Source of the DNA: an uncultured bacterium
GTDB lineage: Bacteria > Schekmanbacteria > GWA2-38-11 > J061
Assembly (NCBI GenBank): GCA_964549305.1
Contig: CAZJVM010000066.1
Coordinates: 1 to 12,990, forward strand
Length of the DNA stretch: 12,990 nucleotides
Direction of reading: 5' to 3'
Shown: positions 1 to 12,881 of the stretch, one piece after another
How the letters are laid out: every line of letters starts with the position of its first letter
Numbering within the stretch: position 1 is the stretch's first letter
Program-made: the position numbers and the translations under genes
The notes under the pieces: generated by a model
Seen by the model: the letters and a program-made list of their open reading frames with translations, nothing else
Told to the model about the DNA's origin: nothing
The model's database searches: none

Positions 1-746
1 GATTCGATTCCATTAATACCCCTGATGCCGTAAACAGACTTCCTTCCGCCTGACCACATTATTCTTCTGGGTAAATATTCCTTTTCTTCTTTTATAGATG
101 TCTCCGTTTCCAATCCGTCGAGAAGCTTTTCAATCTGGGTTTTCTCTATCACTAAAGGCGCAGAAACAATCCCGTCACTGTCAACGAAAACCATTTTCCC
201 TTTGGGAATAATGACAAACGAAAGCTCTTCGTTTCTCTGACGACCTTCCACTTTAACCCTGCCTTCGAGGACAGCAACATTAGTTTCCTCTCGCTCATTT
301 ACCGAAACAATGAAATCTGTCCCTCTGACCGCGCATAATGCCGTAGGAGTTGAAATTTCAAAACTGCTTTTCTCACCTGTAATTTTTTTAACCATTATCC
401 GCACCTTACCCAAAATGAGATGCAGCAAATCTTTGCCATTCGAAACATTTTCAACTCTCTTTACAAAAGTAAACTTTGAAAGTTGCGCCACATTAATAAC
501 AGCGCCGTCGCTTACCAGCACCTTCGCATTTGACTTTTTACCCGTCACTAAATAGTCCCCTGCACAAAAGCGCTCTCTGATTTTAGGCGATTCACCTTCG
601 CTTCGCCCTTTTTTAAAAACATCTACATTTCCCTGAAAGCTTAAAAGGACACCTGTGATTTCAGAGGAATAAGAAGTATAATTATATAAAATTATATAAA
701 AAACGCAAATATAAAATGTAAAAAAAAGACGTAAATATTTTTTCAT
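1..746 (-). CDS. FecR-domain-containing exported/membrane protein (3' end runs off the window)
   Basis: Not in the ORF track. Manual translation from ATG at 746 stays open to the window edge: MKKYLRLFFTFYICVFYIILYNYTSYSSEITGVLLSFQGNVDV...GDYLVTGKKSNAKVLVSDGAVINV...LILGKVRIMV...FEISTPTALCAVRGTDFIVSV...TNVAVLEGRVKVEG. TPTA-x2-VRGTDF and VxVLEGxVxV are FecR-domain hallmarks. Basic/hydrophobic N-terminus. Confidence 0.85.
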   Translation of the reverse strand, partial: MKKYLRLFFTFYICVFYIILYNYTSYSSEITGVLLSFQGNVDVFKKGRSEGESPKIRERFCAGDYLVTGKKSNAKVLVSDGAVINVAQLSKFTFVKRVENVSNGKDLLHLILGKVRIMVKKITGEKSSFEISTPTALCAVRGTDFIVSVNEREETNVAVLEGRVKVEGRQRNEELSFVIIPKGKMVFVDSDGIVSAPLVIEKTQIEKLLDGLETETSIKEEKEYLPRRIMWSGGRKSVYGIRGINGIE

Positions 747-777
747 TATTTTTTAGATAAGACAGAAAAAGAGAGAA

Positions 778-2649
778 CTACAAAAGATCCTGCATTATTT
801 CAATGTCGCCGTTTTTCCTGTAATTGGCAACAACCTGAGAAACAATTATATTTTTTCTTTCTTCGATAATTTTCGCGCGAATGGATTGTTTTTTCGATTC
901 GAATTCTTTTTGGTCTATTTCATCCTTCCCCTTCAGCAAAACAATATAAGCGCCGTTTTGGCTAATTGAAAAATCCGCCCGCTTTTCTTCGCTGAGAGAA
1001 AAAACCAATGCCTTAAACTTCTCCCTGTCAATTGCATCTTCCGGCACTTCCCTTCTCAGAATTTTCCCGGTCGATTTAACTGCAATTTTATCTTTCTTCA
1101 CCACTTCATTTAATGACTTTCCTTCTTTAATCATCTTTACAACAGATGAAGCCTTTTTTTCCATAGCGCCGAACGCTCTTTCCTTCTTTAAATCAATCGC
1201 CACTTTGTCGGATACTTCCTCAAATGCGCCGTCGTGTGATGGTCTTTTCCCGAGAGTTTTTATAACGACAAAAAAAGGTCCAATATTTACCGGATTGCTT
1301 ACTTTGCCTTCATCGAGAGAATAGGCGGCATTAAAAAACTTTCCGCTGTTTGGAATACCCTCTATTGCCTTATTTCTGAATATGGTTTTTTTATTTATTT
1401 CCACTTTGTCATCTTTCGCGCCCTCTTCGATGAATTTCTTTATTTCCTTTGCCTTTGATAGAGCGAGTTCCTTCTCTTTTTTTCTTTCAAGACGGCGTTT
1501 AAGATTTTCACTGACATATTCAAAAGGTTTGACTTCTCCGGGGGAAAGTTTCTTTTCCACCGTTATTATGTGATAACCGAACGAAGACCTTACCAAATCG
1601 CTTATTTCTCCCTCATCCAACGCGAATGCGGCTTTTTCGAATTCAGGGTCCATTTCGCCCTTTCCGAAGAATCCAAGGTCGCCTCCTCTTGTTGTTGACA
1701 ATGGTTCATCTGAATAAAGCTTAGCAAGGTTTGTGAAATCTTTTCCTGCCTTTGCCTCTTTCAGTATTTTTTCCGCCTTTTTCTTGACCGCTTCTTCCTG
1801 AACGGGGTTATCATCAGGTTTGATTCTGAAAAGTATATGTCTTGCCTTGACTTTTTCGTCATCGACTTTAAATTCATCCTGATTCGAATCGTAATAGGAC
1901 TTTACCTCATCATCTGCAATCTTCGCGGAATTCATAAAATCATTTATTTCAATCTGCGCAAACTCCACATCGGCGGAATCTTCCACTTTGTACTTTGAGG
2001 TATTCTTCGTATAATAATCATTCAGCTCATCATCGGATACCTGAATGTCTTTCAGCAGTGAATCGATGGAAAAGAAAACATAATCCGCTTCCACTTTTTC
2101 GTTCTCCCCGATAAACTTCTGCATCAGTTCCCTATCGCTTACTACTGTGCAGTCTTCAAGCATCTTTCTTATCATATCGATACCGATTTCCTGCTTTTGG
2201 CCCGCGATAAAATCCTTGGGGTCGATTCTGTTGCGGTTGAGGACTGAAATCATCTGCCTTTTATCAAGGTTGCCGTTTTTGTCTTTGAAGACATCGTATG
2301 TCTTCAGTTTTTCCAGAAGGTCGTAATCGCTTGTTTTTATTCCCGTCTCTTCGAACACCTGCCTCATAAGCTCGCGCTCTACAAGCCTGTTTATGACCAT
2401 CTCCTTTATATTAATCTGCTTGAGGTACTGCTCGGCATTTTCCTTGAGTATATTCCTGATTTGATTTTCCGTCTGCATCAGCTCATTTTTGTACTGATTG
2501 TATGATATATTCACGCCGTTAACCTTTGCCACGGGAGGACCATCCCTGTCGTCACTGCCCATCACTCCGTAAAATGCTACAAAAGCGATAATTATTACCC
2601 ACAATATGGGCTGAAATTTCTTTGTGTTTCTTCTAAAATAATCAAACAT
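778..2649 (-). CDS. ppiD: PpiD-like periplasmic chaperone / parvulin peptidyl-prolyl isomerase with SurA N-terminal domain
   Basis: 623 aa. N-terminal membrane anchor (ILWVIIIAFVAFYGV), SurA_N-like VAKVNGVNIS, and a parvulin domain (KARHILF...FTNLAKLYSDEP...GGDLGFFGKGEMDPEFEKAAFAL...ISDLVRSSFGYHII). Size and architecture match PpiD. Confidence 0.85.
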   Translation of the reverse strand: MFDYFRRNTKKFQPILWVIIIAFVAFYGVMGSDDRDGPPVAKVNGVNISYNQYKNELMQTENQIRNILKENAEQYLKQINIKEMVINRLVERELMRQVFEETGIKTSDYDLLEKLKTYDVFKDKNGNLDKRQMISVLNRNRIDPKDFIAGQKQEIGIDMIRKMLEDCTVVSDRELMQKFIGENEKVEADYVFFSIDSLLKDIQVSDDELNDYYTKNTSKYKVEDSADVEFAQIEINDFMNSAKIADDEVKSYYDSNQDEFKVDDEKVKARHILFRIKPDDNPVQEEAVKKKAEKILKEAKAGKDFTNLAKLYSDEPLSTTRGGDLGFFGKGEMDPEFEKAAFALDEGEISDLVRSSFGYHIITVEKKLSPGEVKPFEYVSENLKRRLERKKEKELALSKAKEIKKFIEEGAKDDKVEINKKTIFRNKAIEGIPNSGKFFNAAYSLDEGKVSNPVNIGPFFVVIKTLGKRPSHDGAFEEVSDKVAIDLKKERAFGAMEKKASSVVKMIKEGKSLNEVVKKDKIAVKSTGKILRREVPEDAIDREKFKALVFSLSEEKRADFSISQNGAYIVLLKGKDEIDQKEFESKKQSIRAKIIEERKNIIVSQVVANYRKNGDIEIMQDLL

Positions 2650-4434
2650 TTATTTTGCGCTCCTTCTTAATTTTATTCCAAGCTCATTAAGCTGTTTCTC
2701 GCCCACGTCGGAAGGGGCGTTTGTCATCTGGCAAACTGCCTTCTGCGTTTTCGGAAAAGAAATAACTTCCCGTATGGAGCTTGCGCCTGCGAGTATCATC
2801 ACCAGTCTGTCCAGACCAAAGGCGATTCCTCCGTGAGGAGGCGCTCCGAACTGCAAAGCTTCGAGAAGAAAACCGAATTTCGCCCCCGCTTCCTCTTTCC
2901 CGATTCCCAAAGCATTGAACATCTTTTCCTGAACATCGTTGCGGTGAATTCTTATGCTTCCCCCGCCTACCTCCGAACCGTTCAGAACAAGGTCATATGC
3001 CTTCGCGCGAATCTTCGAAGGGTCTGTGTCGAGTAAAGGTATATCTTCATCTACGGGAGATGTAAAGGGATGATGCATTGCCACATACCTCTTTTCCTCG
3101 TCATTATATTCAAGAAGTGGAAAATCGGTAACCCACAGAAAATTATGTTTCTTTTGATCTATAAGCCCGAGATTATTTCCTATTTTCAACCTCAGGGCGG
3201 AAAGAGCGCGATAGACCACCTGCTTTTTATCTGCGACGATAAAGAGAGTATCGCCCGGTTCGGCGCCGAGTTTTTCCTTCATATTCTTTATTTCATCTTC
3301 ACTGAAGAATTTTACCACGGGAGACTGAAGATCTTTTTCAAGCACTTTTATCCATACAAGACCCTTAGCGCCCTCTCCCTTTACAAACTCCGTAAAATCA
3401 TCGAGCTCTTTTCTCGTCATTCCCGACGCGCCCTTTGCGTTGATGCCCGATATGAGTCCTTTACCGGAGATTACTCCCGAAAAAACCTTGAACTCCGATT
3501 TCTCAAAAACCTGCGTAAGATCAACAAGTTTCATATCAAACCTTGTATCCGGTTTATCGTTTCCGTAAGAGCTCATCGCTTCAGCATATGAAAGGCGCGG
3601 GAAAGGCGTCTCAATATCGATATGGGCAGATTCGGAAAAGACCGCCTTCATAAGCCCTTCCATAATCCTGTAAATATCCTCTCTTTCCACAAAGGACATC
3701 TCAACATCAATCTGCGTAAATTCAGGCTGTCTGTCGGCGCGAAGGTCTTCATCCCTGAAACATTTCACTATCTGATAGTATCTTTCAAATCCCGAAACCA
3801 TAAGTATCTGCTTGAAAAGCTGAGGAGATTGGGGAAGGGCAAAAAACTTTCCCCTGTTAACCCGGCTTGGCACCAGATAATCCCTTGCTCCTTCAGGCGT
3901 GCTCTTTGTAAGGAAAGGAGTTTCAATGTCAAGAAATCCTTCTTTATCAAAATAGCGGCGCACCGCTTTCGTCACATTGTAGCGAAGGATTATGTTTTTC
4001 TGAAGCGAAGGCCTTCTGAGGTCAAGATAGCGGTATTTAAGACGCACATCTTCGGCAACATTTATGTCGTCCTCAATCTGAAAGGGCGGAGTTTGCGCTG
4101 TGTTTAGTATTCTCAACTCCTCACCCACGACTTCTACTTCACCGGTTGGCATATTGGGGTTTGCCGTATCTCCCGGGCGAAGCCTCACTTTTCCTCTTAC
4201 AGCTATAACAAACTCCGACCGGAGCTTTTCAGCTTTGCCGTGAGAATCACTGTTCAATTCCTCGTCAAAAACAATCTGAGTTATTCCTTCCCTGTCGCGA
4301 AGGTCAATAAAAATAACTCCTCCGTGGTCACGTCTTCTCTGCACCCATCCCATCAATGTCACTTCCGCTTCATTATCCTTCGCGCTCAATATGCCGCAGG
4401 AATGAGTCCTCGTCAGTCCTTCAAGATTATCCAT
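2650..4434 (-). CDS. aspS: Aspartate--tRNA ligase (bacterial type, probably non-discriminating Asp/Asn)
   Basis: 594 aa. RTHSCG, GWVQRRRDHGGVIFIDLRD, RLKYRYLDLRR, TPEGARDY, ALPQSPQLFKQ, CFRDEDLRADRQPEFTQID, HHPFT, GGGSIRIH, GAPPHGGIAFGLDRL, FPKT. Confidence 0.99.
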   Translation of the reverse strand: MDNLEGLTRTHSCGILSAKDNEAEVTLMGWVQRRRDHGGVIFIDLRDREGITQIVFDEELNSDSHGKAEKLRSEFVIAVRGKVRLRPGDTANPNMPTGEVEVVGEELRILNTAQTPPFQIEDDINVAEDVRLKYRYLDLRRPSLQKNIILRYNVTKAVRRYFDKEGFLDIETPFLTKSTPEGARDYLVPSRVNRGKFFALPQSPQLFKQILMVSGFERYYQIVKCFRDEDLRADRQPEFTQIDVEMSFVEREDIYRIMEGLMKAVFSESAHIDIETPFPRLSYAEAMSSYGNDKPDTRFDMKLVDLTQVFEKSEFKVFSGVISGKGLISGINAKGASGMTRKELDDFTEFVKGEGAKGLVWIKVLEKDLQSPVVKFFSEDEIKNMKEKLGAEPGDTLFIVADKKQVVYRALSALRLKIGNNLGLIDQKKHNFLWVTDFPLLEYNDEEKRYVAMHHPFTSPVDEDIPLLDTDPSKIRAKAYDLVLNGSEVGGGSIRIHRNDVQEKMFNALGIGKEEAGAKFGFLLEALQFGAPPHGGIAFGLDRLVMILAGASSIREVISFPKTQKAVCQMTNAPSDVGEKQLNELGIKLRRSAK

Positions 4435-4481
4435 TCTAAATCACTCTCAGTTAAATGTAGTTAAAGATTTTAAGAGATGAG

Positions 4482-4511
4482 AGATTACAGTTTAAAAGGG
4501 CATATTGTCAA
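4482..4511 (-). promoter_or_regulatory. Putative sigma70 promoter for aspS-ppiD-fecR
   Basis: Minus strand: perfect -35 TTGACA (4511-4506), 18-nt spacer, -10-like TAATCT (4487-4482), about 48 nt upstream of the aspS ATG. Confidence 0.5.
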
Positions 4512-4568
4512 ACAAAAACTATTTCAAAAAAGGAGAAATAAATCCCACTGCATCTTGAGGGGCTAACT

Positions 4569-4597
4569 TTGACAAAGACGCGATAAAGAAGTAATAT
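4569..4597 (+). promoter_or_regulatory. Putative sigma70 promoter for the permuted iPGM gene
   Basis: Perfect -35 TTGACA (4569-4574), 17-nt spacer, -10-like TAATAT (4592-4597). GAGGGAG SD-like sequence at about 4621-4627 precedes ATG 4638. Confidence 0.65.
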
Positions 4598-4637
4598 TGC
4601 GGGAATTTTTTACATTAAAAGAGGGAGAAGCAGACAG

Positions 4638-6239
4638 ATGAGCAATAGTGAAAACAATAAAATATTTCCTATGAGCGAGGGCGTAAAATCCGCCTATGAC
4701 AGGGGTGAAGAAGACGAATCGATGAATCCCATAGTCCTCGAGGAAAATGGCATCCGTCCGGGAAAAATCGGTAATGAGGAGTATGTCATCTTTTACGACA
4801 TCAGGGGCGAAAGGGAAATCGAGCTTACAAAAAGTTTCATTGAAAAGGGATTCAGCGAATTCCCGAAAGAAGACAACCGCACCGCGAAATTCGTTACAAT
4901 GGTAGAGTACAGCAAGGACCTCGATGTGGATGTGGCATTTCCGCCTGAGGAGGAGATTGAAAATACACTATGCGAAGTAATAAGCAAAAACGGTCTGAAG
5001 CAGGCAAAGATTGTTGAAACCGAAAAAGCAGTGCATCTGAGCTATTTTTTGAACGGCAAAAGGAGCGAACCTTTTGAAGGTGAAGAGAGGATATTCATTC
5101 CTTCGCTTAAGGATATAAGCAATTATGATGACTATCCTGAAATGTGTATCGACAAAGTCACAGACACAGTGGAAAAATGCCTTTGTGAAGGAAAAAACAA
5201 TCTTGTAATAGCAAACTTCGCGAATGTTGATGTAGTGGGACATATAGAGAATGAATCAGCAGTAAAAAAAGCGGTCGAGGCAGTGGACAGGGCAATAGGA
5301 AAAGTCGTGGAATGCGCAGGCAAAAACGGCTATGCGAGCATCATAACGGCAGACCACGGAACTGTGGAAAAATGGCTTTATCCCGAAGGCACGGTAGATA
5401 CTGGACATACAAACAGTCCGGTACCATTCATAATAGTTTTTCCCGACAATGACTCCGGTAAACTGAAATTACAATTAAGGGAAGATGCTGAATTAAGCGA
5501 TGTGGCACCCACTGTTTTTGACCTGATGGACATTGATAAACCTTCCTCAATGACGGGAAAATCTATTATTGCGGAAAAGTCGAATTTATCAAAAGACCCT
5601 CGAAAAGTTCTTTTCCTCATATGTGACGGATGGGGATACAACGATAAATCCCAAGGCAACCTTATCGCGCAAAGCAAAACACCCAATATGGACAAGTTCA
5701 TGAAAAACTGTCCATTCACATCTATAATTTCATCAGGTAAGGCAGTTGGTATGCCCGCGGGCACTGTGGGAAATTCCGAAGTGGGACATCTTCATATCGG
5801 AGCGGGAAGAAGAATCTACTCCGACCGTTTGCGTATCGACAAGGCAATGGAAGACAACTCATTCTTCGAAAATGCAGCGTTCACCAAAGCGATGGAAGAA
5901 TCGATAAAAAACAATACCCCTCTTCATCTTCTCGGAATCGTTTCCTTTTACAGTTCACACGGTTCGATCACTGACCTTTTCGGACTGATGGAAATGGCAA
6001 AACAGAAAGGCGTAAAGGAAGTCTATATCCACTCCTTTTTGGGAAGACGCGGAGAAAGACCCGAAAGCGGCAGAAGATATATCAGGCAGGTTGAGGAAAA
6101 GGCGAAAGAACTTGGTGTGGGAAAACTCGTCGATGTTATGGGACGATTCTGGTCACTTGACCGCGAGGAAAACTGGGACAGAATCGAAAAAACATACCGC
6201 ACCCTCGCCTATCGTGAAGGCATAGCAGTAAAGGTTTAA
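4638..6239 (+). CDS. gpmI: 2,3-bisphosphoglycerate-independent phosphoglycerate mutase homologue (alkaline-phosphatase superfamily), circularly permuted
   Basis: All iPGM motifs are present but out of order. Residues ~12-311 carry AYDRGEEDE, IRGER, ETEKAVH, NFANVDVVGH, ITADHG, TGHTNSPVP, LSDVAPT, MTGKSII (canonical C-terminal part). Residues ~322-533 carry LFLICDGWG, KTPNMD, SGKAVGMP, GNSEVGHLHIGAGR, GRFWSLDRE-x-NWDRIEK (canonical N-terminal part). Confidence 0.9.
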   Translation: MSNSENNKIFPMSEGVKSAYDRGEEDESMNPIVLEENGIRPGKIGNEEYVIFYDIRGEREIELTKSFIEKGFSEFPKEDNRTAKFVTMVEYSKDLDVDVAFPPEEEIENTLCEVISKNGLKQAKIVETEKAVHLSYFLNGKRSEPFEGEERIFIPSLKDISNYDDYPEMCIDKVTDTVEKCLCEGKNNLVIANFANVDVVGHIENESAVKKAVEAVDRAIGKVVECAGKNGYASIITADHGTVEKWLYPEGTVDTGHTNSPVPFIIVFPDNDSGKLKLQLREDAELSDVAPTVFDLMDIDKPSSMTGKSIIAEKSNLSKDPRKVLFLICDGWGYNDKSQGNLIAQSKTPNMDKFMKNCPFTSIISSGKAVGMPAGTVGNSEVGHLHIGAGRRIYSDRLRIDKAMEDNSFFENAAFTKAMEESIKNNTPLHLLGIVSFYSSHGSITDLFGLMEMAKQKGVKEVYIHSFLGRRGERPESGRRYIRQVEEKAKELGVGKLVDVMGRFWSLDREENWDRIEKTYRTLAYREGIAVKV

Positions 6240-6300
6240 TTTAAAACATCATATTCATCTTACAAAACTTTCGGCTTTCTCCGTAAAAAAGGATTTTACA

Positions 6301-7134
6301 ATGGTTGCTAACAGGACACTCGCTTCTCTCTTAACGGCGCTCCTTCTCTTTTCCGCGTGCGTATTTATTGAGAAAGAAGCGCCACAGAAAAAGGAAGAAG
6401 CAAAGCTCACGAGTGCAGAAGAAGCGCAGGCACTCCTCAATGAGGGAGACGCGAATTACAAGGAAGGCAACTACGACCTTGCCATATCCGATTACAGCAA
6501 GGCAATAGAGATGGAACCCGGTCTTGCCGGGGCATACAACAATCGGGCAAGCGCATACAACATCAAAGGAGATTCCGCGCGCGCCATATCCGACTACACA
6601 AGGGCAATCGAGATAAATCCGGGTTACGCGTCGGCATACTACAACCGGGGCACGGTATACCAGCAGGGAGGCAAATACGACCTTGCAATCTTAGATTACG
6701 GCAGGGCAATCGAAATCAATCCTGATGACTGCGACGCATACTACAACCGGGGTCTAATCTACAGGAAAAAAAGAAATGACGAACTTGCCATAGCGGATTT
6801 TAACAATGCAGTCGAGATTAATCCAAAGCACGCTGACGCATTCTACAATCTGGGAATCATTTATGAAAAAAGAAACAGATATGACCTCGCTATATCCAGT
6901 TACGACAAAGTAATCGAAATTAATCCTCAAAACGCCAATGCATATCTGAACAGGGGAAATTCCTATTACAAGAAAGGCAAATACCAACTCGCCATATCAG
7001 ATTACAGCAAGGCAATCGAAATTAATCCTAAGAATGAGCAGGCATACTACAACCGAGGCACCGCTTACCAGACAATAGGCGAATACGACCTCGCCATATC
7101 AGACTTCGACAAGGCAATGGAGCTTAAGGAATAA
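6301..7134 (+). CDS. Tetratricopeptide repeat (TPR) lipoprotein
   Basis: 277 aa. Signal peptide ending in lipobox-like LFSA-C20, then seven 34-aa repeats of consensus AxAYyNRGxxYxxxgxYDLAIsDYxKAIEINP. AAGGA SD upstream. Confidence 0.92.
   Translation: MVANRTLASLLTALLLFSACVFIEKEAPQKKEEAKLTSAEEAQALLNEGDANYKEGNYDLAISDYSKAIEMEPGLAGAYNNRASAYNIKGDSARAISDYTRAIEINPGYASAYYNRGTVYQQGGKYDLAILDYGRAIEINPDDCDAYYNRGLIYRKKRNDELAIADFNNAVEINPKHADAFYNLGIIYEKRNRYDLAISSYDKVIEINPQNANAYLNRGNSYYKKGKYQLAISDYSKAIEINPKNEQAYYNRGTAYQTIGEYDLAISDFDKAMELKE
6424..7131 (+). repeat. Seven tandem 102-bp TPR-coding repeats
   Basis: 102-nt periodicity. For example gccatatccgattacagcaaggcaatagag (6481-6510) vs gccatatcagattacagcaaggcaatcgaa (6991-7020): 27/30 identical, 510 nt (5 x 102) apart. 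Confidence 0.85.
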
Positions 7135-7189
7135 TTACTCAATTCCGTTTCCCCGTGCTGCTCTCTCACCGCATGAACTGTTTTCACAG

Positions 7190-7210
7190 ACGGATTTTTA
7201 CCGAATCCGT
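7190..7210. terminator. Inverted repeat between convergent genes, possible terminator or mRNA-stabilising hairpin
   Basis: ACGGATT (7190-7196) / AATCCGT (7204-7210), 7-bp stem with 7-nt loop, 4 nt past the ccp stop. No U-tract on either strand, so it is weak as an intrinsic terminator. Confidence 0.35.
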
Positions 7211-7214
7211 AATG

Positions 7215-8255
7215 TCAATCAAGTTTGGGTCTGGGAGTCTTATCAGTAGGTTCAGGCAAAACCGGATATTCGATTTTCGGCTGTTTTCCTGTAGTCGTTT
7301 TCAGGAAAGATACTATTTTGCCCGCTTCTTCGCCGGTAACTGAATTGCCAAGCTGAATATCAGCCATTATCTTTACCGCTTCCTTCAAATCCCATACTCT
7401 GCCGGAATGAAAATAGGGCGCAGTGAGGGCGATATTTCTCAATGAAGGCGCCTTGAAGAAATACTTGTCGGGAAGCTTTCCGGTAATTTTATATCTTCCC
7501 GTATCCCCCGAAAGTATTGCCTCGGGCGGTTTCTTCGCGAGACCAAAGGGAAAATATCCCTCTCCTCCCATATTAATGCCATTGTGGCAGGCAGAGCATC
7601 CTTTGGTAATATACATTTCAAGACCTTCTCTTTCGCTCTTGCTTAGCGCCGATGCGTCGCCCTTCAGAAACAAATCAAACTTTGAATCAGGTGTGAGAAG
7701 AGTCGCCTCGAAAACTTCGATTGCCTTTGCCATATTGTCGAAAGAAACAGGGTCTTTCTCTTTGGGAAACGCTTTTTCGAAAGCGTCAATATAACCGGGC
7801 ATACTCTTAAGAGTCTTAATCACATCTTCCGGCTTGTTGTTCATCTCCACCGATGCCTGCACAGGTCCCTTCGCCTGCTCTTCAAGGTCCTTTGCCCTCC
7901 CGTCCCAGAATTGCGCCACATTGAAAACAGAGTTAAGCACCGTGGGCGCGTTTCTCTCACCGCGATTCCATCCGTGCCCGGTGGAAGTTTCCTGATAGTC
8001 CGCTCCGCCCAATCCAAGGTTGTGACAGGTGTTACAGCTTATAAGGGCGCTTGCCGAAAGGCGCGGTTCGAAAAAGAGCATTTTTCCAAGTTCCACTTTC
8101 GCGGGCGTGGCGTCGTTGCCTTCAATCGCGGAGGCGCGGTCGGGAATCACCTTGAAGAAATTCTGCGCCTTGTTCATCAATTCATCCTCGGCGTAAGAAA
8201 TCCCCGTTACAAGCAGAGCGGAAAATAAAAGCGCAAAAATAACAATTCTCTTCAT
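7215..8255 (-). CDS. ccp: Bacterial di-haem cytochrome c peroxidase (CcpA-type), periplasmic
   Basis: Sec signal (MKRIVIFALLFSALLVTGISYA), LGKMLFFEPRLS, two haem motifs CNTCH and CSACH, distal-His loop TSTGHGW, RNAPTV, QFWDGRA, QAKGP..EM, FKAPSLRN, APYFHSG, Met-ligand region KIMADIQLG. GGAGG SD (8268-8264) favours ATG 8255 over TTG 8258. Confidence 0.96.
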   Translation of the reverse strand: MKRIVIFALLFSALLVTGISYAEDELMNKAQNFFKVIPDRASAIEGNDATPAKVELGKMLFFEPRLSASALISCNTCHNLGLGGADYQETSTGHGWNRGERNAPTVLNSVFNVAQFWDGRAKDLEEQAKGPVQASVEMNNKPEDVIKTLKSMPGYIDAFEKAFPKEKDPVSFDNMAKAIEVFEATLLTPDSKFDLFLKGDASALSKSEREGLEMYITKGCSACHNGINMGGEGYFPFGLAKKPPEAILSGDTGRYKITGKLPDKYFFKAPSLRNIALTAPYFHSGRVWDLKEAVKIMADIQLGNSVTGEEAGKIVSFLKTTTGKQPKIEYPVLPEPTDKTPRPKLD

Positions 8256-8277
8256 CAACTTGTCCTCCCAATAAAAT

Positions 8278-10227
8278 TTAATTTATAACGGCTTTCAGCT
8301 TCTTCATCTCGGGAATTATTTCAGCCAATCCGAGCGTTTCGAGATTATCTTCCTTCTGTAATCCCGAAACGCTGTCCCATCCCCTGAGATTGTAATAATC
8401 GGTCATCATTTCATCAAACTCTTCCCTGTTCACAACACTTCCTTTTCTCGACACAAGGTTGCCGGAATTTCCGGGAAGCATAAATTCCGGATTGAACATT
8501 CCGAAAAATCCCGGAGACTCTTCAAAGGTTTCACTGTAATTGAATTCATTGAGAATATCATCCTCTCTGCCTCTTCGCCCTTCCCTGCACTGAATAGCCC
8601 GTTGAAGATTGAATGTTCTCTCACCGCTCAGATAGTATTTCGCCTCGTCGAAATTCTCGCCCGTAACCGCTGAAAGGAGGCGGCTTTCCAGGCAAGGGTC
8701 GCCGACCATATCCCCGGCGCCTTCGGCTACGGTAAGAGGAAAAAGGAAATCACAGACAACGAGATTTTCCTTTGCGTATTCTCTGTCCTGAATAATGCGT
8801 GCAACATCTGCCTTGCCCCGGAAGGAAGAGAAATCTACGGCATTTTCGCTTCCCCAGAATTTTTTTGCAACTTTCCGCATTACTTCCGTACTCACGGGGG
8901 ACATAGCTCCATTCGTGGCATACCACATAACCCACTTCATCATAGGCATACATATTTCGTGAAGCTGATTTATAATGCTCGTTGTTTCCGTTGCGTAAAA
9001 AACCGAGTTTGTAAGGAAAAATCTCGGATTGTAAAAGTTTGCATCCCTTCCGTTGGGCGTAAGGAAGCTTTCGATTATACCTGTGCAGGAATCCCCTATT
9101 TGCTTACCCGTCCTTACTGTGCCTTCCGCAAGCAAATCGCCCAACCCTTTGCGATTTATAATAATATCAACAAGATTTTCTATGAATTCAAGGCTTCCGA
9201 TTTCAGATAGCGGAATTCCGGTGTCTTTATCGTTCAAAATTCCTCTTTCACCGCACTTGTACAGAAAGCTGAGAATGCTTCCCATTTCGTGCGTATCGAG
9301 CCCGTTTCTGTTGCAAAGGGAAGTCGCTATGAATGTATTGGGAGTGGATTCACCCTTGTTATATTTCTGGTCCCACAAAAAATACATAAATGCCGACTGG
9401 CAGTTTTTTCTGTATTCCTCTCTGCCGGAAACATGTTTCAATATTCCTCTCGGACAACCTGCGGGACAGGCAGGACAAGGGGTCTTTTTTACTAGTTCGG
9501 TCCCCGCAGTCTCAAGTCCTATAAGCTCTCTGCCCTTTATGAGAGAACGGATGTACGCGTTTGTCTCCTTGAGTTCGTCGGGTTTCGCCACAAGCGGTTT
9601 CCCGCTCCCCTCTACGACTATCGCCTTAAGGTTTTTTGCCCCCATTACAGCGCCGAATCCCGCGCCCGCGCAGGCGCCTCTGTCACTCATAATTATGGAA
9701 AATCTGATCTTCCTTTCTCCCGCGGGACCTATGCAAAGCGCCTGTGAATTAACACCATGACTTTTCGCCAGAGCATCGAGAGTGTCATCGGTTTTTCTTC
9801 CCCACAATGCGCCGGCATCCTCAAATCTGATTTTGTCATCTTTGATATGTATATAGGAAGGTCTCTCCGATTTTCCCGTAATCACTATCCCGTCATATCC
9901 TGCCGATTTAAGTGAAATAGCGAAACTGCCTCCCACATTACCGTATGAAAACTGGTCCGGATATAAAAGCGGCGATTTGCCTCCAATCACCCATCTCGAA
10001 CCCGCGACAGCAGAAGTCCCTGCGAGAGGACCCGTCATAAGAATAAGAGGACTGTCGCGGTGAAGGGCATCCTTTCCCCTATCTGAATAATCCCAGTAAA
10101 TTTTTGAAAGGATTCCCCTGCCTCCCACGAATTTATCACAGTACTTATCAGTGGGGATTGTCTGAATATCTCCCGAGGAAAGATCAAGGGCTAAAATCCT
10201 GCCGCACCATCCGAAATATTTATCCAT
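8278..10227 (-). CDS. Aldehyde:ferredoxin oxidoreductase (AOR/WOR) family W/Mo-bis-pterin, [4Fe-4S] enzyme
   Basis: 649 aa. GWCGRILALDLSSG, VGGRG, TGPLAG, KSP, LKSAGYDGIVITGKS, LWG, CIGPAGE, GAVMGAKNLKAI, CPACPAGC plus late VVCDF (4Fe-4S ligands), CNRNGLD, RKGLGDLLAEG, GER, YYNLRGWD..G. Confidence 0.93.
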   Translation of the reverse strand: MDKYFGWCGRILALDLSSGDIQTIPTDKYCDKFVGGRGILSKIYWDYSDRGKDALHRDSPLILMTGPLAGTSAVAGSRWVIGGKSPLLYPDQFSYGNVGGSFAISLKSAGYDGIVITGKSERPSYIHIKDDKIRFEDAGALWGRKTDDTLDALAKSHGVNSQALCIGPAGERKIRFSIIMSDRGACAGAGFGAVMGAKNLKAIVVEGSGKPLVAKPDELKETNAYIRSLIKGRELIGLETAGTELVKKTPCPACPAGCPRGILKHVSGREEYRKNCQSAFMYFLWDQKYNKGESTPNTFIATSLCNRNGLDTHEMGSILSFLYKCGERGILNDKDTGIPLSEIGSLEFIENLVDIIINRKGLGDLLAEGTVRTGKQIGDSCTGIIESFLTPNGRDANFYNPRFFLTNSVFYATETTSIINQLHEICMPMMKWVMWYATNGAMSPVSTEVMRKVAKKFWGSENAVDFSSFRGKADVARIIQDREYAKENLVVCDFLFPLTVAEGAGDMVGDPCLESRLLSAVTGENFDEAKYYLSGERTFNLQRAIQCREGRRGREDDILNEFNYSETFEESPGFFGMFNPEFMLPGNSGNLVSRKGSVVNREEFDEMMTDYYNLRGWDSVSGLQKEDNLETLGLAEIIPEMKKLKAVIN

Positions 10228-10266
10228 TTCTCATCAACCTCGCACAATATAAAGGAGTTTGCTATT

Positions 10267-11238
10267 TCAGTAATGCACCGTTGGCGGCATTCCCATAAGG
10301 CGTATCGCTCCAAAGGGATGATTTCTCGCTCTTGCCATTTTAACGGCGCCGTCCTTCAGGAAAAGATACTCCATCCAATGGGCGCGCATCTCATTCATTC
10401 GAAGTTTATCCTTTCCGCTTTCCTCTTCATCTTTATGCTTCCTGACAATATCCGCGTATGATGACAGAAGGGTTTCCGCTCCTTCCTTCGCGATGCCCAT
10501 AGCCCGGGAAAGGTTGAGCATTTTGAGCTGTATTCCTGCGCCTGCGGAAAGAGGTTTTTCCCATTCTTCCATATTGTATTGCTTTTGAAGGCCCGCACTG
10601 AGCTTTTCGTGGTCATAGCCGTATTTTTCCGCCACAGCTTTCATTTTCTTCCTTACTCCTTCTATGACGTCTTCAGGAGTCGATGCGGGAAAGACATCAA
10701 AGTTCGTATTGATTATATCTTTGCGGGCATCGAGGCGCTCGATATTGAGATGCCCCATGGGAATCTTTGAAGAACGGGGAAATATTTCTACCTGTATAAC
10801 GCGTATATCCACAGGATCGCCTTCCTTTGCCAATCCTCTTTCAATCATAAATTCCGACGGTTTTTTATATTTTATGACTATCTCCGATACAGTCGCTTTC
10901 TCGAAAACACTGCCTCTTGAAACATTCACTTCGTGCCGGTATGAAGATTCGCTTCCCGAATCCTTTTCCTCTGACGGTGTCATATGGGTAAATGTTTTCT
11001 TTTCCCATTTCTCGCCGTTGAATTCCGAAATTACGCTGATAGCGCGGGCTTTGAAGGAGTCCATAAATTTGTCCGCTTGAAAGAGAAGATTGTCAGGCAT
11101 TTTTTTCACCTCTTGCGCCAAAGTTTCCGGTTGCGAGTAAGAAATCCCGAAAGATGCGCACACTAAAACAAAGAGCAACAGCAAAGGCGCTTTATCTAAA
11201 ATATTTTTTTTATTTTCCGCTGTTCTTCCAGTATTCAT
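10267..11238 (-). CDS. Divergent HemF (oxygen-dependent coproporphyrinogen III oxidase)-like protein with N-terminal signal/membrane segment; function unknown
   Basis: Collinear matches to HemF as I recall it: GSVFEKATVS ~ GGVFEQAGVN; EIFPRSSKIPMGHLN ~ VVHPHNPYVPTSHAN; FDVFP ~ FDLTP; SYADIVRKHK ~ AYLPIVERRK; MRAHWMEYLFLKD ~ RRGRYVEFNLVWD; MGMPPTVHY ~ MSMPPLVRW. Start uncertain: TTG 11253, ATG 11250, ATG 11238, or ATG 11100 (has a GAGGTG SD). Confidence 0.75.
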   Translation of the reverse strand: MNTGRTAENKKNILDKAPLLLLFVLVCASFGISYSQPETLAQEVKKMPDNLLFQADKFMDSFKARAISVISEFNGEKWEKKTFTHMTPSEEKDSGSESSYRHEVNVSRGSVFEKATVSEIVIKYKKPSEFMIERGLAKEGDPVDIRVIQVEIFPRSSKIPMGHLNIERLDARKDIINTNFDVFPASTPEDVIEGVRKKMKAVAEKYGYDHEKLSAGLQKQYNMEEWEKPLSAGAGIQLKMLNLSRAMGIAKEGAETLLSSYADIVRKHKDEEESGKDKLRMNEMRAHWMEYLFLKDGAVKMARARNHPFGAIRLMGMPPTVHY

Positions 11239-12691
11239 CCCATTTTTCATCAACTAATTTAAAGGACTCGGGAACCATTTTTTCCAGCTGAACCTTGCTT
11301 ATGAGAGGCCATTGCGCGGGTCCTCCCTCAATTGGAAGCTGTCTTGTGGCATCGATTACAATCTTGCTCGAAATACCTCTCTGCTTCATACTCGGGTCAA
11401 GCCCCATATTAAATGCCTGAGGTATAATCAGACTTGCCGGATGGGGTTGCCATCTCGTGGAAACCGCGTGAAGGACTTCAGTAATATTGGTAACATCCAC
11501 ATCGTCATCTACGACTATTATAATCTTCGACGTCCCCACTCCCAGCGCAATCTGCCCCGCAGTGATACCCATTCCGGGGAACCTCTTGCTGATGCTTAAA
11601 ATAGATATGCCTATAGCTTCCATTGGAGAATATAAATCCGTCATATAGGGAATGACCTGCTTAAGTTTGATATAGTTGCCAACCTGCCACGGCAGCATAT
11701 GGGATGTATAAGTCACTCCCGTGAAATTGTTGAATGTCCAGGGATTCTTTTTATGAGTTATCGCTTTCACATTCATATAATAGGTTTCGTGTTTTTTACC
11801 CATATAGCCGTACATTTCGCCGTAAGGTCCTTCCTCCTCCATCTCCGCGATGACGTCGCCTTCGATAATCATTTCCGCCTCCGCGGGTACCATAAGACTG
11901 CTTGTTTCGCATTTAACGAGTTCTACGGGTTTACCCTTTACACCCCCGGCATACTCTAACTCGTCTTCGCCCATATCTGCCACCTTGGTGCTTGCCATAG
12001 AATAGATTACGGGCTCAACCCCGAGAGCGATTGCCGCGGGAATCGATTTTTGCCCCTGCCTGACCGCTTTCATTATAAACTGCCAACCGTGCTGTCCCGG
12101 TTCGGTATTCATCCCTATCTTGTTTTTTCCCTTTACCTGCAACCTGTAAGTGCCCACATTTCGGCCAAGCTGAGGGTCTTCCATAAAAACCGAACCCGTG
12201 TTTATGTATTGGGCAACATCGCCGGGATTGTTCTTAAACCAGGGAAATTTATAGACATCAACATCATTTTCCTCTATTACAACCTCCTTGCAGGGAGGGT
12301 TGTCTCCGCTGAATTCAACGGGTTTGATTCTCTTCCATTTGCCGTTATTGTCAACGAAACCGATAAGTTTATCCATTACCGCCCTGTACATCGCGCCCGC
12401 GTCATCGGTAACATTTTCCACTCCAAACATCATCGCCGCGGTTTCCCATCCGCAGAATTGGTTGGAAATAACCGGACCTTCCATCAATTCGCCGTTGATT
12501 TTCACTTTTTCAAAAATAAGCGCGGGACAGCGGTCCGCGCCAAGTTTTTCAATCATTCTGTAGACAAAGGCAGTGCCTTCATATTTGTCCTGGTCAATCT
12601 CCGGAATTCTAAGCACCTTGCCTCTTTCCTCAAGAGCGTTTATATATTCCCGCATTGAATCGTAAGGACCCGTAGCTTTTACATTGCTCAT
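11210..12691 (-). CDS. UbiD-family prenylated-FMN-dependent (de)carboxylase
   Basis: SMREYINALEERG, FEKVK, PCKEVVI, RNVGTYRLQ, QHG, AEMIIEG, EGPYGEMYGY, IIIVVDDDVDV, LDPS, KIVIDAT. Start moved from 12811 (ORF track) to ATG 12691 because of a TAAGGAG SD at 12707-12701 and because homology begins there (493 aa). Substrate cannot be assigned. Confidence 0.95.
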   Translation of the reverse strand: MSNVKATGPYDSMREYINALEERGKVLRIPEIDQDKYEGTAFVYRMIEKLGADRCPALIFEKVKINGELMEGPVISNQFCGWETAAMMFGVENVTDDAGAMYRAVMDKLIGFVDNNGKWKRIKPVEFSGDNPPCKEVVIEENDVDVYKFPWFKNNPGDVAQYINTGSVFMEDPQLGRNVGTYRLQVKGKNKIGMNTEPGQHGWQFIMKAVRQGQKSIPAAIALGVEPVIYSMASTKVADMGEDELEYAGGVKGKPVELVKCETSSLMVPAEAEMIIEGDVIAEMEEEGPYGEMYGYMGKKHETYYMNVKAITHKKNPWTFNNFTGVTYTSHMLPWQVGNYIKLKQVIPYMTDLYSPMEAIGISILSISKRFPGMGITAGQIALGVGTSKIIIVVDDDVDVTNITEVLHAVSTRWQPHPASLIIPQAFNMGLDPSMKQRGISSKIVIDATRQLPIEGGPAQWPLISKVQLEKMVPESFKLVDEKWDEYWKNSGK

Positions 12692-12881
12692 AGAAAATAT
12701 CTCCTTAAAATTATGAATGTTGGAACGGTAAAACAAATCTTCCACTTTTGTAAATCTAAAAATCATATATGCAAAGTAAAAAAACATCAAATAACTATGC
12801 GATTTTTTCATTGGATTTAGTAAAAGGATGGTAAAGAATCAAGATATAAAATATTATTTTTGCTTAGAGTTATTATTTTTA

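Follow-up and report, generated by a model that had tools for sequence, protein, structure and literature searches.

Bacterial-type cofactor-independent phosphoglycerate mutases (iPGMs), known as GpmI or GpmM (TIGR01307; structures 1EJJ, 1O98, 2IFY and 4NWJ), run in a canonical order in which a first part of the phosphatase domain is followed by a hinge, the transferase (substrate-binding) domain, a second hinge and the remaining part of the phosphatase domain. The archaeal-type iPGM encoded by apgM (TIGR00306, NF003160) nominally carries out the same reaction and belongs to the same alkaline-phosphatase-like superfamily, but it is ~400 aa long and has a different inserted domain (PhosphMutase, PF10143). 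Phosphopentomutase DeoB shares the phosphatase core, with another cap domain and another substrate. Homologous enzymes that differ by circular permutation are known in nature, an example being the eukaryotic and bacterial glutathione synthetases, as the consulted part of PMC2876114 describes. Here we analyse a 12,990-nt stretch of DNA from an uncultured Schekmanbacteria bacterium (contig CAZJVM010000066.1 of assembly GCA_964549305.1; hereafter the window), in which a gene at 4638..6239 on the forward strand encodes what is, almost beyond doubt, a genuine and naturally occurring circular permutant of bacterial-type iPGM.

The window protein is ~38-41% identical to the solved GpmI/GpmM enzymes and retains both domains, the metal ligands, the Ser nucleophile and the Arg, Lys and His residues of the substrate site. 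It differs from them in that its chain is permuted, so that the former termini are connected and the protein now begins and ends around canonical ~211/218, in that its pocket reads LGRRGE rather than LDGRD and carries about ten other clade-specific substitutions, and in that its gene accompanies apgM rather than being the sole iPGM of the genome. With archaeal-type iPGM it has the superfamily, the nominal reaction, shared genomes and one natural fusion in common, but it gives just a weak local match to TIGR00306 (31.4 bits against a cut-off of 320). The phosphatase core of DeoB is recognised by the structure aligner VIA at Z ~11 over model residues 106-318 and by NCBIfam at 38 bits, far below the cut-off. 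Glutathione synthetase has an unrelated fold; in the present case, the permutation breaks the chain of a two-hinge enzyme within its inserted domain. The original prediction for this DNA had been unaware of any described natural permuted iPGM; in agreement, our search of the full-text literature, with subscription journals outside its coverage, returned no description of one, the papers in which both topics occur dealing with other proteins, and literature searches returned no characterised member of the permuted clade. Three archaeal-type iPGMs are reported from Syntrophus aciditrophicus (Foster et al. 2010, PMC2964296), and the consulted part of that paper does not mention the permuted form.

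Results

Two swapped stretches in one reading frame

When the window protein was compared by phmmer with all chain sequences of the PDB, it matched the iPGM of Geobacillus stearothermophilus (1EJJ, 511 aa; E 4e-114) in two stretches of swapped order: residues 322-529 correspond without gaps to chain residues 4-211 (190.6 bits), and residues 14-312 to chain residues 218-510 (194.1 bits). The same two-stretch match was seen with 11 of the 11 iPGM sequences matched in the PDB. TIGR01307 exceeds its cut-off of 330.65 with 484.2 bits summed over two stretches, the better of which pairs residues 8-311 with profile positions 209-504 of 504. The Pfam families Metalloenzyme (PF01676, alkaline-phosphatase-like superfamily; 197.4 bits against a gathering score of 24.3) and iPGM_N also each match in two stretches. 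A six-frame search of the genome with TIGR01307 gives the same picture at the DNA level, 4644-5570 corresponding to profile 204-504 and 5604-6281 to profile 2-230, with the halves on their own (277 and 211 bits) falling below the cut-off. The window protein thus does not follow the collinear canonical order of phosphatase N-part, transferase domain and phosphatase C-part. A circular permutation with its new termini in the transferase domain had been proposed from the order of motifs, along with a separate alignment of the halves to TIGR01307, iPGM_N and Metalloenzyme as a check; these searches bear the proposal out and place the termini at canonical ~211/218. All motif positions read at that time were recovered by regular expressions (RGER 56-59, ETEK 127-130, DVVGH 198-202, ADHG 238-241, GHT 256-258, MTGKSII 305-311, AEKSNLSKDP 312-321 at nt 5571-5600, DGWG 330-333, GNSEVGH 378-384, SSH 439-441 and GRFWSLDRE 502-510).

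Read from its new N-terminus, the protein consists of the second half of the transferase domain, a hinge, the second part of the phosphatase domain, the joined termini, the first part of the phosphatase domain, the other hinge and the first half of the transferase domain, all on the forward strand. Residues 14-105 (4677..4952) align with canonical ~218-310 of 1EJJ and contain R56 and R59 (canonical R261 and R264). The boundary near residue 105 is set by the VIA alignments of the phosphatase core, which begin at model residues 104-106. Residues 106-311 (4953..5570; canonical ~311-510) form the C-terminal part of the alkaline-phosphatase-like domain, as judged from Pfam, 1EJJ, conservation and VIA, and hold K130, D198, H202, D239, H240 and H257. 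Residues 312-321 (5571..5600), the gap between the aligned stretches, join the former C-terminus to the former N-terminus. Residues 322-399 (5601..5834; canonical ~4-81) are the N-terminal part of the phosphatase domain, with D330 (D12), the nucleophile S380 (S62) and H384, as placed by 1EJJ and by the Pfam iPGM_N match that starts at residue 400. Residues 400-533 (5835..6236; canonical ~82-215) make up the first half of the transferase domain up to the new C-terminus and include H441 (H123), LGRRGE 468-473, R503 and R509, on the evidence of Pfam, 1EJJ and regular expressions. The phosphatase domain has therefore become contiguous and the transferase domain split, as predicted from the motifs; both canonical hinges are retained, and it is a surface loop of the transferase domain, canonical ~211-218, that has been cut open.

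An AlphaFold2 model computed from a 50-row alignment has a pLDDT of 91.5 and a pTM of 0.86, and the predicted fold has two domains as in the solved iPGMs. Every Foldseek match to the model at E <=0.001 is an iPGM entry, over 292-317 columns (229 for 7TL8) and with TM scores of 0.36-0.51, values of the kind expected when a permutant is given to a sequential aligner. VIA superposes model residues 10-312 on residues 214-510 of 1O98/1EJJ (Z 22.5, 294 residues). Sequential structure aligners reach one segment only, so that the fold of the other half rests on its sequence match (190 bits).

The coding sequence comprises 533 codons plus a stop and starts with ATG, as supported by the ORF (open reading frame) and by profile and phmmer matches. 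A Shine-Dalgarno-like GAGGGAG (4621..4627, forward strand), read from the sequence, lies 10 nt upstream of the ATG at 4638, and a candidate sigma-70-like promoter (TTGACA, 17 nt, TAATAT; 10/12 consensus positions) lies at 4569..4597 on the same strand. The promoter is a pattern match from a consensus scan that gave 11 sites in the region against 3.6 expected from shuffles; the gene's own promoter and ribosome-binding site, which the original prediction had claimed, are thus present as promoter-like and Shine-Dalgarno-like patterns. Since many homologues start near the equivalent of M12 (nt 4671), translation may alternatively begin there.

The same order in relatives

The permuted arrangement, which had been read from a single gene, is not a one-off and defines a large clade that extends across several phyla, as both protein relatives and genome loci attest. 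Among the best 120 relatives listed from a collection of 5.8 billion proteins, 119 align with the window protein in a single collinear piece (95-100% query cover, 54-80% identity), the exception being P0004, a 367-aa shorter database form of the window protein that is 100% identical to it. Of 237 stretches that encode a relative in species-representative genomes, 80 were kept as loci, and all 80 match the window protein collinearly as a single segment that runs from residue ~1-23 up to 527-533, with 50-57% identity. The search for homologues that had been put forward as a check found the identical swapped order in every kept locus. The kept loci include the closed chromosome of Syntrophus buswellii DM-2 (NZ_CP175563.1) and chromosome-level metagenome-assembled genomes of Smithellaceae and Syntrophus. 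By record title, 42 belong to Syntrophia, 9 to Chloroflexota, 7 to 'Deltaproteobacteria' and 2 to Gemmatimonadota, 9 are labelled Myxococcota, and one locus each comes from Eisenbacteria, Planctomycetota, Pseudomonadota, Zixibacteria and Thermoplasmatota. When the ORFs of loci L013-L146 were tested by phmmer for the order of their two halves, 84 were scored as permuted and 50 as canonical, in a set where loci overlap and two sister-genome genes are counted twice.

Within the small phylum of the window, the permuted gene was found in three of five genomes and a collinear iPGM in none. Two sister genomes, G008 and G009, carry it at 80% and 71% identity, and in G008, of the same genus, the gene order aspS, permuted gene, TPR gene is conserved (83%, 80% and 60% identity, respectively). 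Members of the clade are found in Syntrophia, Anaerolineae and other Chloroflexota, Schekmanbacteria, Aminicenantes, Gemmatimonadota and others. The permuted clade is large and old, occurs in many anaerobes of several phyla, and has apparently gone undescribed.

Catalytic residues and the substrate pocket

The alignment to 1EJJ places residues of the window protein opposite D12, S62, H66, H123, R153, R185, R191, R261, R264, K336, D403, H407, D444, H445 and H462, which we take to include the metal ligands and the Ser nucleophile. In an alignment of 208 permuted and 178 canonical rows, 44 columns hold the same residue at >=95% conservation in both groups, among them all of these catalytic equivalents except R153, whose counterpart R471 lies outside this list and is invariant in 50 permuted alignment rows. 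Of the residues that presumably bind phosphoglycerate (H123, R153, D154, R185, R191, R261, R264 and K336), all but D154 are kept in the window protein, as H441, R471, R503, R509, R56, R59 and K130. The original description of the metal ligands and the phosphoserine (D330, S380, D198, H202, D239, H240 and H257) as intact holds, all being aligned and at least 95% conserved, with a caveat for the pocket, where LDGRD has become LGRRGE, and its picture of a functional mutase gene has to accommodate that the gene is never the sole phosphoglycerate mutase (PGM) candidate in the 31 genomes that can be judged.

Among 217 permuted proteins, a set dominated by close relatives of the window protein, the pocket motif is GRRG in 206, DGRD in 3, DGRS in 3 and NRHG in 1, with 4 unmatched by the pattern. 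A basal permuted subgroup (P0131, P0135, P0141 and P0283) carries the whole canonical signature; TIGR01307 scans of two of its members gave 653 bits (P0131) and 620 bits (P0283). The change of topology and the drift of the pocket are thus separable. P0283 (975 aa), a permuted iPGM with the canonical signature, also bears an unassigned C-terminal extension of ~380 aa.

Trees and the junction

A library of representatives at 50% identity gave 10,601 matches to the query at E <=0.001 and 1,809 at E <=1e-30. The best 150 comprise 10 full-length permuted proteins (35-51% identity), 5 fragments and 135 canonical proteins that match in two swapped stretches. For phylogeny, proteins were cut at the two matched segments and the segments re-set in canonical order. 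A FastTree phylogeny of 386 rows (208 permuted, 178 canonical) contains two changes of order and divides the permuted rows into a clade of 205 (support 99) and a clade of 3. Quick IQ-TREE searches (LG+G4) of 38 and of 77 rows also contain two changes each; in the larger of these trees, a single clade of 16 rows (SH-aLRT 99) unites the LGRRGE with the LDGRS subgroup, and the four permutants with canonical signature are unresolved on the backbone. When permuted rows were constrained to one clade, the log-likelihood rose over that of the free quick tree by 9.5 (38 rows, p-AU 0.657) and by 63.5 (77 rows, p-AU 0.906). The free searches were short; of the trees obtained, the one with a single origin scores best, and the test does not reject it.

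In 210 of 213 permuted proteins, the equivalents of S309 and D330 are 18-24 residues apart (mode 21), while canonical proteins mostly have 2-7 residues beyond that Ser and mostly 9-15 ahead of that Asp. The junction is thus about as long as an old C-terminal tail plus an old N-terminal lead, as an in-frame tandem duplication followed by truncation would predict. The ~10-aa linker of the original prediction is correctly located (312-321, nt 5571-5600) but is essentially old tail and old lead rather than new sequence. Breakpoints and junction length are alike in all permuted subgroups. Descent of the permuted clade from a class of low-scoring collinear iPGMs (545-580 aa) was considered and rejected, as the window protein is nearer to typical canonical iPGMs (~200 + 180 bits, against ~130 + 80 bits).

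Phosphoglycerate mutases of the host genomes

The genome of the window (100% complete, 169 contigs) holds no collinear iPGM by six-frame search. It encodes an NF003160-type ApgM (583.5 bits against a cut-off of 468) and a His_Phos_1 protein that is nearest to the alpha-ribazole phosphatase (CobC) model, whose cut-off it narrowly misses (154.7 against 162.9 bits). A further apgM-like gene of this genome (L008, G000:C18:40695-44867, in the region 183-3943) lies between homoserine dehydrogenase and aspartate kinase genes; it fits TIGR02535, 'proposed homoserine kinase', at 546 bits and is probably a threonine-pathway enzyme rather than a PGM.

The permuted-bearing genomes that have no NF003160 match above cut-off offer other candidates: a low-scoring collinear iPGM (414-430 bits) in G002, G004, G054, G126 and G164, a typical canonical GpmI in G163, a true dPGM in G170 and an archaeal apgM in G171. 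The lower-scoring collinear class (L127-L141, for example G002:C1:2587799-2589358) has frames of 545-580 aa that score 375-448 bits with TIGR01307; it is found alongside the permuted gene in genomes of Smithellaceae and others and stands farther from the window protein than typical GpmI does.

Two evenly drawn samples of 151 genomes each, from the phylum of Syntrophus and from Chloroflexota, were compared by counts without statistics, because relatives are not independent. Typical canonical GpmI occurs in 67 genomes of each sample (for Chloroflexota including the unpublished G317; 66 of 150 without it), and the lower-scoring collinear iPGM in 16 genomes of the phylum of Syntrophus. NF003160 is above cut-off in 41 and 48 genomes, of which 1 and 2, respectively, also have a collinear iPGM, a near-exclusion that fits a non-orthologous displacement of the housekeeping PGM. 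The permuted gene is present in 9 and 4 genomes, of which 6 and 4 have NF003160 and none in either sample has a typical canonical GpmI.

Gene neighbourhoods and fusions

The flanks of the 80 kept loci hold housekeeping genes, in Syntrophales those for an M23/LysM peptidase, PCMT, a macro domain protein, DciA and CarD, and provide no general functional clue. Two related Chloroflexota differ: G248 (L147, G248:C1:868500-877500, 1368-9001) and G320 (L148) share an operon layout of a LacI gene on the opposite strand, two HAD genes, the permuted iPGM, a PRK-family kinase-like gene (397 aa), an NF003160-type apgM, a second PRK-family kinase-like gene (396 aa) and an RpiR gene. The apgM gene is a second copy in these genomes, and the gaps inside the four-gene core are 0-4 nt. 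By its gene content, the operon looks sugar-acid-like, with a mutase-kinase gene pair present twice. Plant glycerate 3-kinase belongs to the PRK/uridine-kinase family; should the kinases of G248 and G320 produce phosphoglycerate, the gene content of the operon would agree with phosphoglycerate as the substrate, which we offer as a lead only. A further hint of a link to ApgM comes from P0286 (935 aa, 5 member sequences, metagenomic), where a permuted iPGM with an LDGRS-like pocket (13-521) is fused to an NF003160-type ApgM (537-935, 597 bits). A complex prediction for the permuted iPGM with the NF003160-type ApgM of the same genome gave no answer (score 0.00) and is evidence neither way.

In six Chloroflexota loci (L013, L018, L022, L027, L073 and L080), a His_Phos_1 gene directly follows the permuted gene. 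It starts 9 nt past the permuted tblastn match in five of them and 35 nt past it in L080; in L013, it occupies 4578-5204 and overlaps the called permuted ORF by 4 nt. Its closest model is that of the putative phosphomutase family MSMEG_4193, with a score of 184 bits that stays under the cut-off.

Other fusions concern iPGMs of canonical order. In P0284, P0287, P0288 and P0289 (1,719-1,726 aa), enolase domains, a canonical-order iPGM and phosphoenolpyruvate-utilising (PPDK/PEP synthase-like) domains are joined, so that, as annotated from sequence, three successive steps of lower glycolysis sit in a single chain. In P0199 (683 aa), an iPGM of canonical order is followed at the C-terminus by a rubrerythrin/ferritin-like domain (Pfam Rubrerythrin, 616-666). 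Downstream of the permuted gene in the window, the reverse strand of 7215-12811 encodes a di-haem cytochrome c peroxidase (CCP/MauG), an aldehyde:ferredoxin oxidoreductase, a weak coproporphyrinogen-oxidase-like ORF and a UbiD-family decarboxylase, which are unrelated to the permutation.

Discussion

The reading that we favour, with moderate confidence as a whole, is that the window gene encodes a permuted GpmI that is Mn-dependent, most likely arose once and acts as a second PGM beside an NF003160-type ApgM. By homology, the substrate phosphate would be transferred to Ser380 at the two-metal centre, the glycerate, held by the Arg, Lys and His residues of the split transferase domain, would turn, and the phosphate would return to the other hydroxyl, thereby interconverting 3-phosphoglycerate and 2-phosphoglycerate (3PG and 2PG). 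Several observations weigh against parts of this reading, and we consider them together with the alternatives that they favour.

It is scarcely credible that the arrangement is an artefact, namely a mis-joined tandem repeat, a chimeric contig or a decaying pseudogene. Of seven sequencing runs listed, four contain part of the stretch, but none of their public contigs, which are short and of low depth, bridges the junction at nt 5546-5720, which is thereby neither confirmed nor refuted in this exact sequence; no RNA run was listed as containing the stretch. However, the identical order recurs in all 80 kept loci, from independent assemblies that include closed chromosomes, as well as in the sister genomes G008 and G009. 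Moreover, all 533 codons are open, 50 homologues have a mean column identity of 65%, and the GC content of the gene (0.43) is that of the surrounding sequence. The artefact explanation is thus effectively refuted. A different question is how often the permutation occurred. In the scenario that we consider likely, an iPGM gene was duplicated in tandem and in frame once, both outer ends of the duplicate were lost to leave the permuted order, and the large permuted clade would have inherited this form. All three free trees (386, 38 and 77 rows) require two order changes rather than one, and the tandem order of halves expected of an intermediate is absent from 9 longer relatives (E <=1e-20), although a blank of this kind is weak evidence. 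It is possible, if unlikely, that two or more independent permutations struck the same permissive loop, with the canonical-signature subgroup and the LGRRGE/LDGRS clade arising separately. Indeed, the small subgroup (P0131, P0135, P0141 and P0283) has a fully canonical signature and falls with or near the canonical proteins P0223, P0171, P0262 and P0205 or remains unplaced. Yet trees constrained to one permuted clade are likelier and are not rejected, the starred branches force one change only, and both groups share the breakpoint loop and have junctions of similar length (20-21 against 18-22 residues). Independent origins would concern the history alone and are compatible with either view of the function.

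As to function, we infer that the permuted protein is a working iPGM-type mutase, probably for 3PG and 2PG, that is kept as a second enzyme; on balance, the enzyme of the window probably still interconverts 3PG and 2PG. A less likely, though by no means negligible, alternative is that the permuted clade, or at least its LGRRGE subgroup, is a neo-functionalised paralogue, with the phosphoserine and two-metal chemistry preserved but with a different small phospho-acid as substrate or with phosphatase activity, and may work together with the NF003160-type ApgM instead of duplicating it. In the clade of the window protein, LDGRD has become LGRRGE (G469, R470 and G472), so that D151, G152 and D154 are replaced by G, R and G, with two acidic residues lost and one basic residue gained, and D154, an Asp in 98% of the 178 canonical rows, is G472 here. 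These three positions belong to 14 columns that are conserved in both groups with different residues; the others include V122 to S440, S124 to G442, D263 to E58, M404 to V199 and N447 to T242, and further changes are found at residues 203, 204, 246, 342, 395 and 434. The clade-specific pocket changes, at D151, G152, D154, V122, N447 and D263, are each 94-99% conserved in the 208 permuted rows. The stricter NF003897/PRK05434 equivalog model is not reached (403.4 bits against 862). Nevertheless, every Arg, Lys and His equivalent that we take to bind phosphoglycerate is kept, the invariant E473 beside G472 could replace Asp154, and basal permuted members have a fully canonical pocket. The genomic company of the gene can likewise be argued both ways. 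Another PGM candidate is present in 31 of the 32 permuted-bearing genomes (the remaining one, G159, is too fragmentary to judge), and NF003160 apgM is above cut-off in 23 of them; since NF003160 hardly overlaps with canonical GpmI (in 1 of 41 genomes and 2 of 48), NF003160 would seem to be the housekeeping PGM and the permuted gene an extra. The P0286 fusion and the tight operon of G248 and G320, with its second NF003160 copy and two kinase-like genes, also speak for a joint role with ApgM, but neither apgM nor a PRK-like kinase gene was found within 3 kb at any of the 80 kept loci. In favour of PGM function, typical canonical GpmI occurs in none of the 13 permuted-bearing genomes of the phylum samples, compared to 67 of 151 in each sample, as expected for isofunctional enzymes, although shared ancestry could give the same pattern. 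Two PGMs in a single genome are, moreover, known from E. coli, according to the consulted part of Foster 2010 (PMC2964296). Exclusion between permuted and canonical GpmI thus fits an isofunctional enzyme, while the company of another presumed PGM accords with a role that is accessory or different. A shifted role of the window enzyme, possibly together with NF003160 ApgM, is accordingly a minority view. More doubtful still is its most specific form, in which the permuted clade, instead of being a spare glycolytic PGM, would have been re-tooled into a phosphomutase or phosphatase whose pocket (LGRRGE) is larger and more basic and which works with NF003160-type ApgM on a different phospho-acid or in a two-step phosphoglycerate-related conversion. 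If true, it would explain the near-obligate co-occurrence with apgM, the natural fusion and the operon with its doubled mutase-kinase pair.

Whichever reaction it serves, the permuted form is a clear natural circular permutation in an enzyme of central metabolism that relies for catalysis on the hinged movement of its two domains. With a continuous phosphatase domain and an opened transferase domain, it has persisted and diversified across phyla, and the canonical active site of its basal members permits the change of topology and the drift of the pocket to be studied separately. Database names for these proteins are inconsistent ('alkaline phosphatase family protein', 'PglZ domain-containing protein', 'sulfatase-like hydrolase/transferase' and 'phosphoglycerate mutase') and the halves score below the TIGR01307 cut-off in six-frame searches, so that the gene may be overlooked or wrongly named when the metabolism of Syntrophia, Anaerolineae, Schekmanbacteria and others is reconstructed. 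Its steady pairing with NF003160 apgM turns the matter of why these anaerobes keep two iPGM-type enzymes into a directly testable question.

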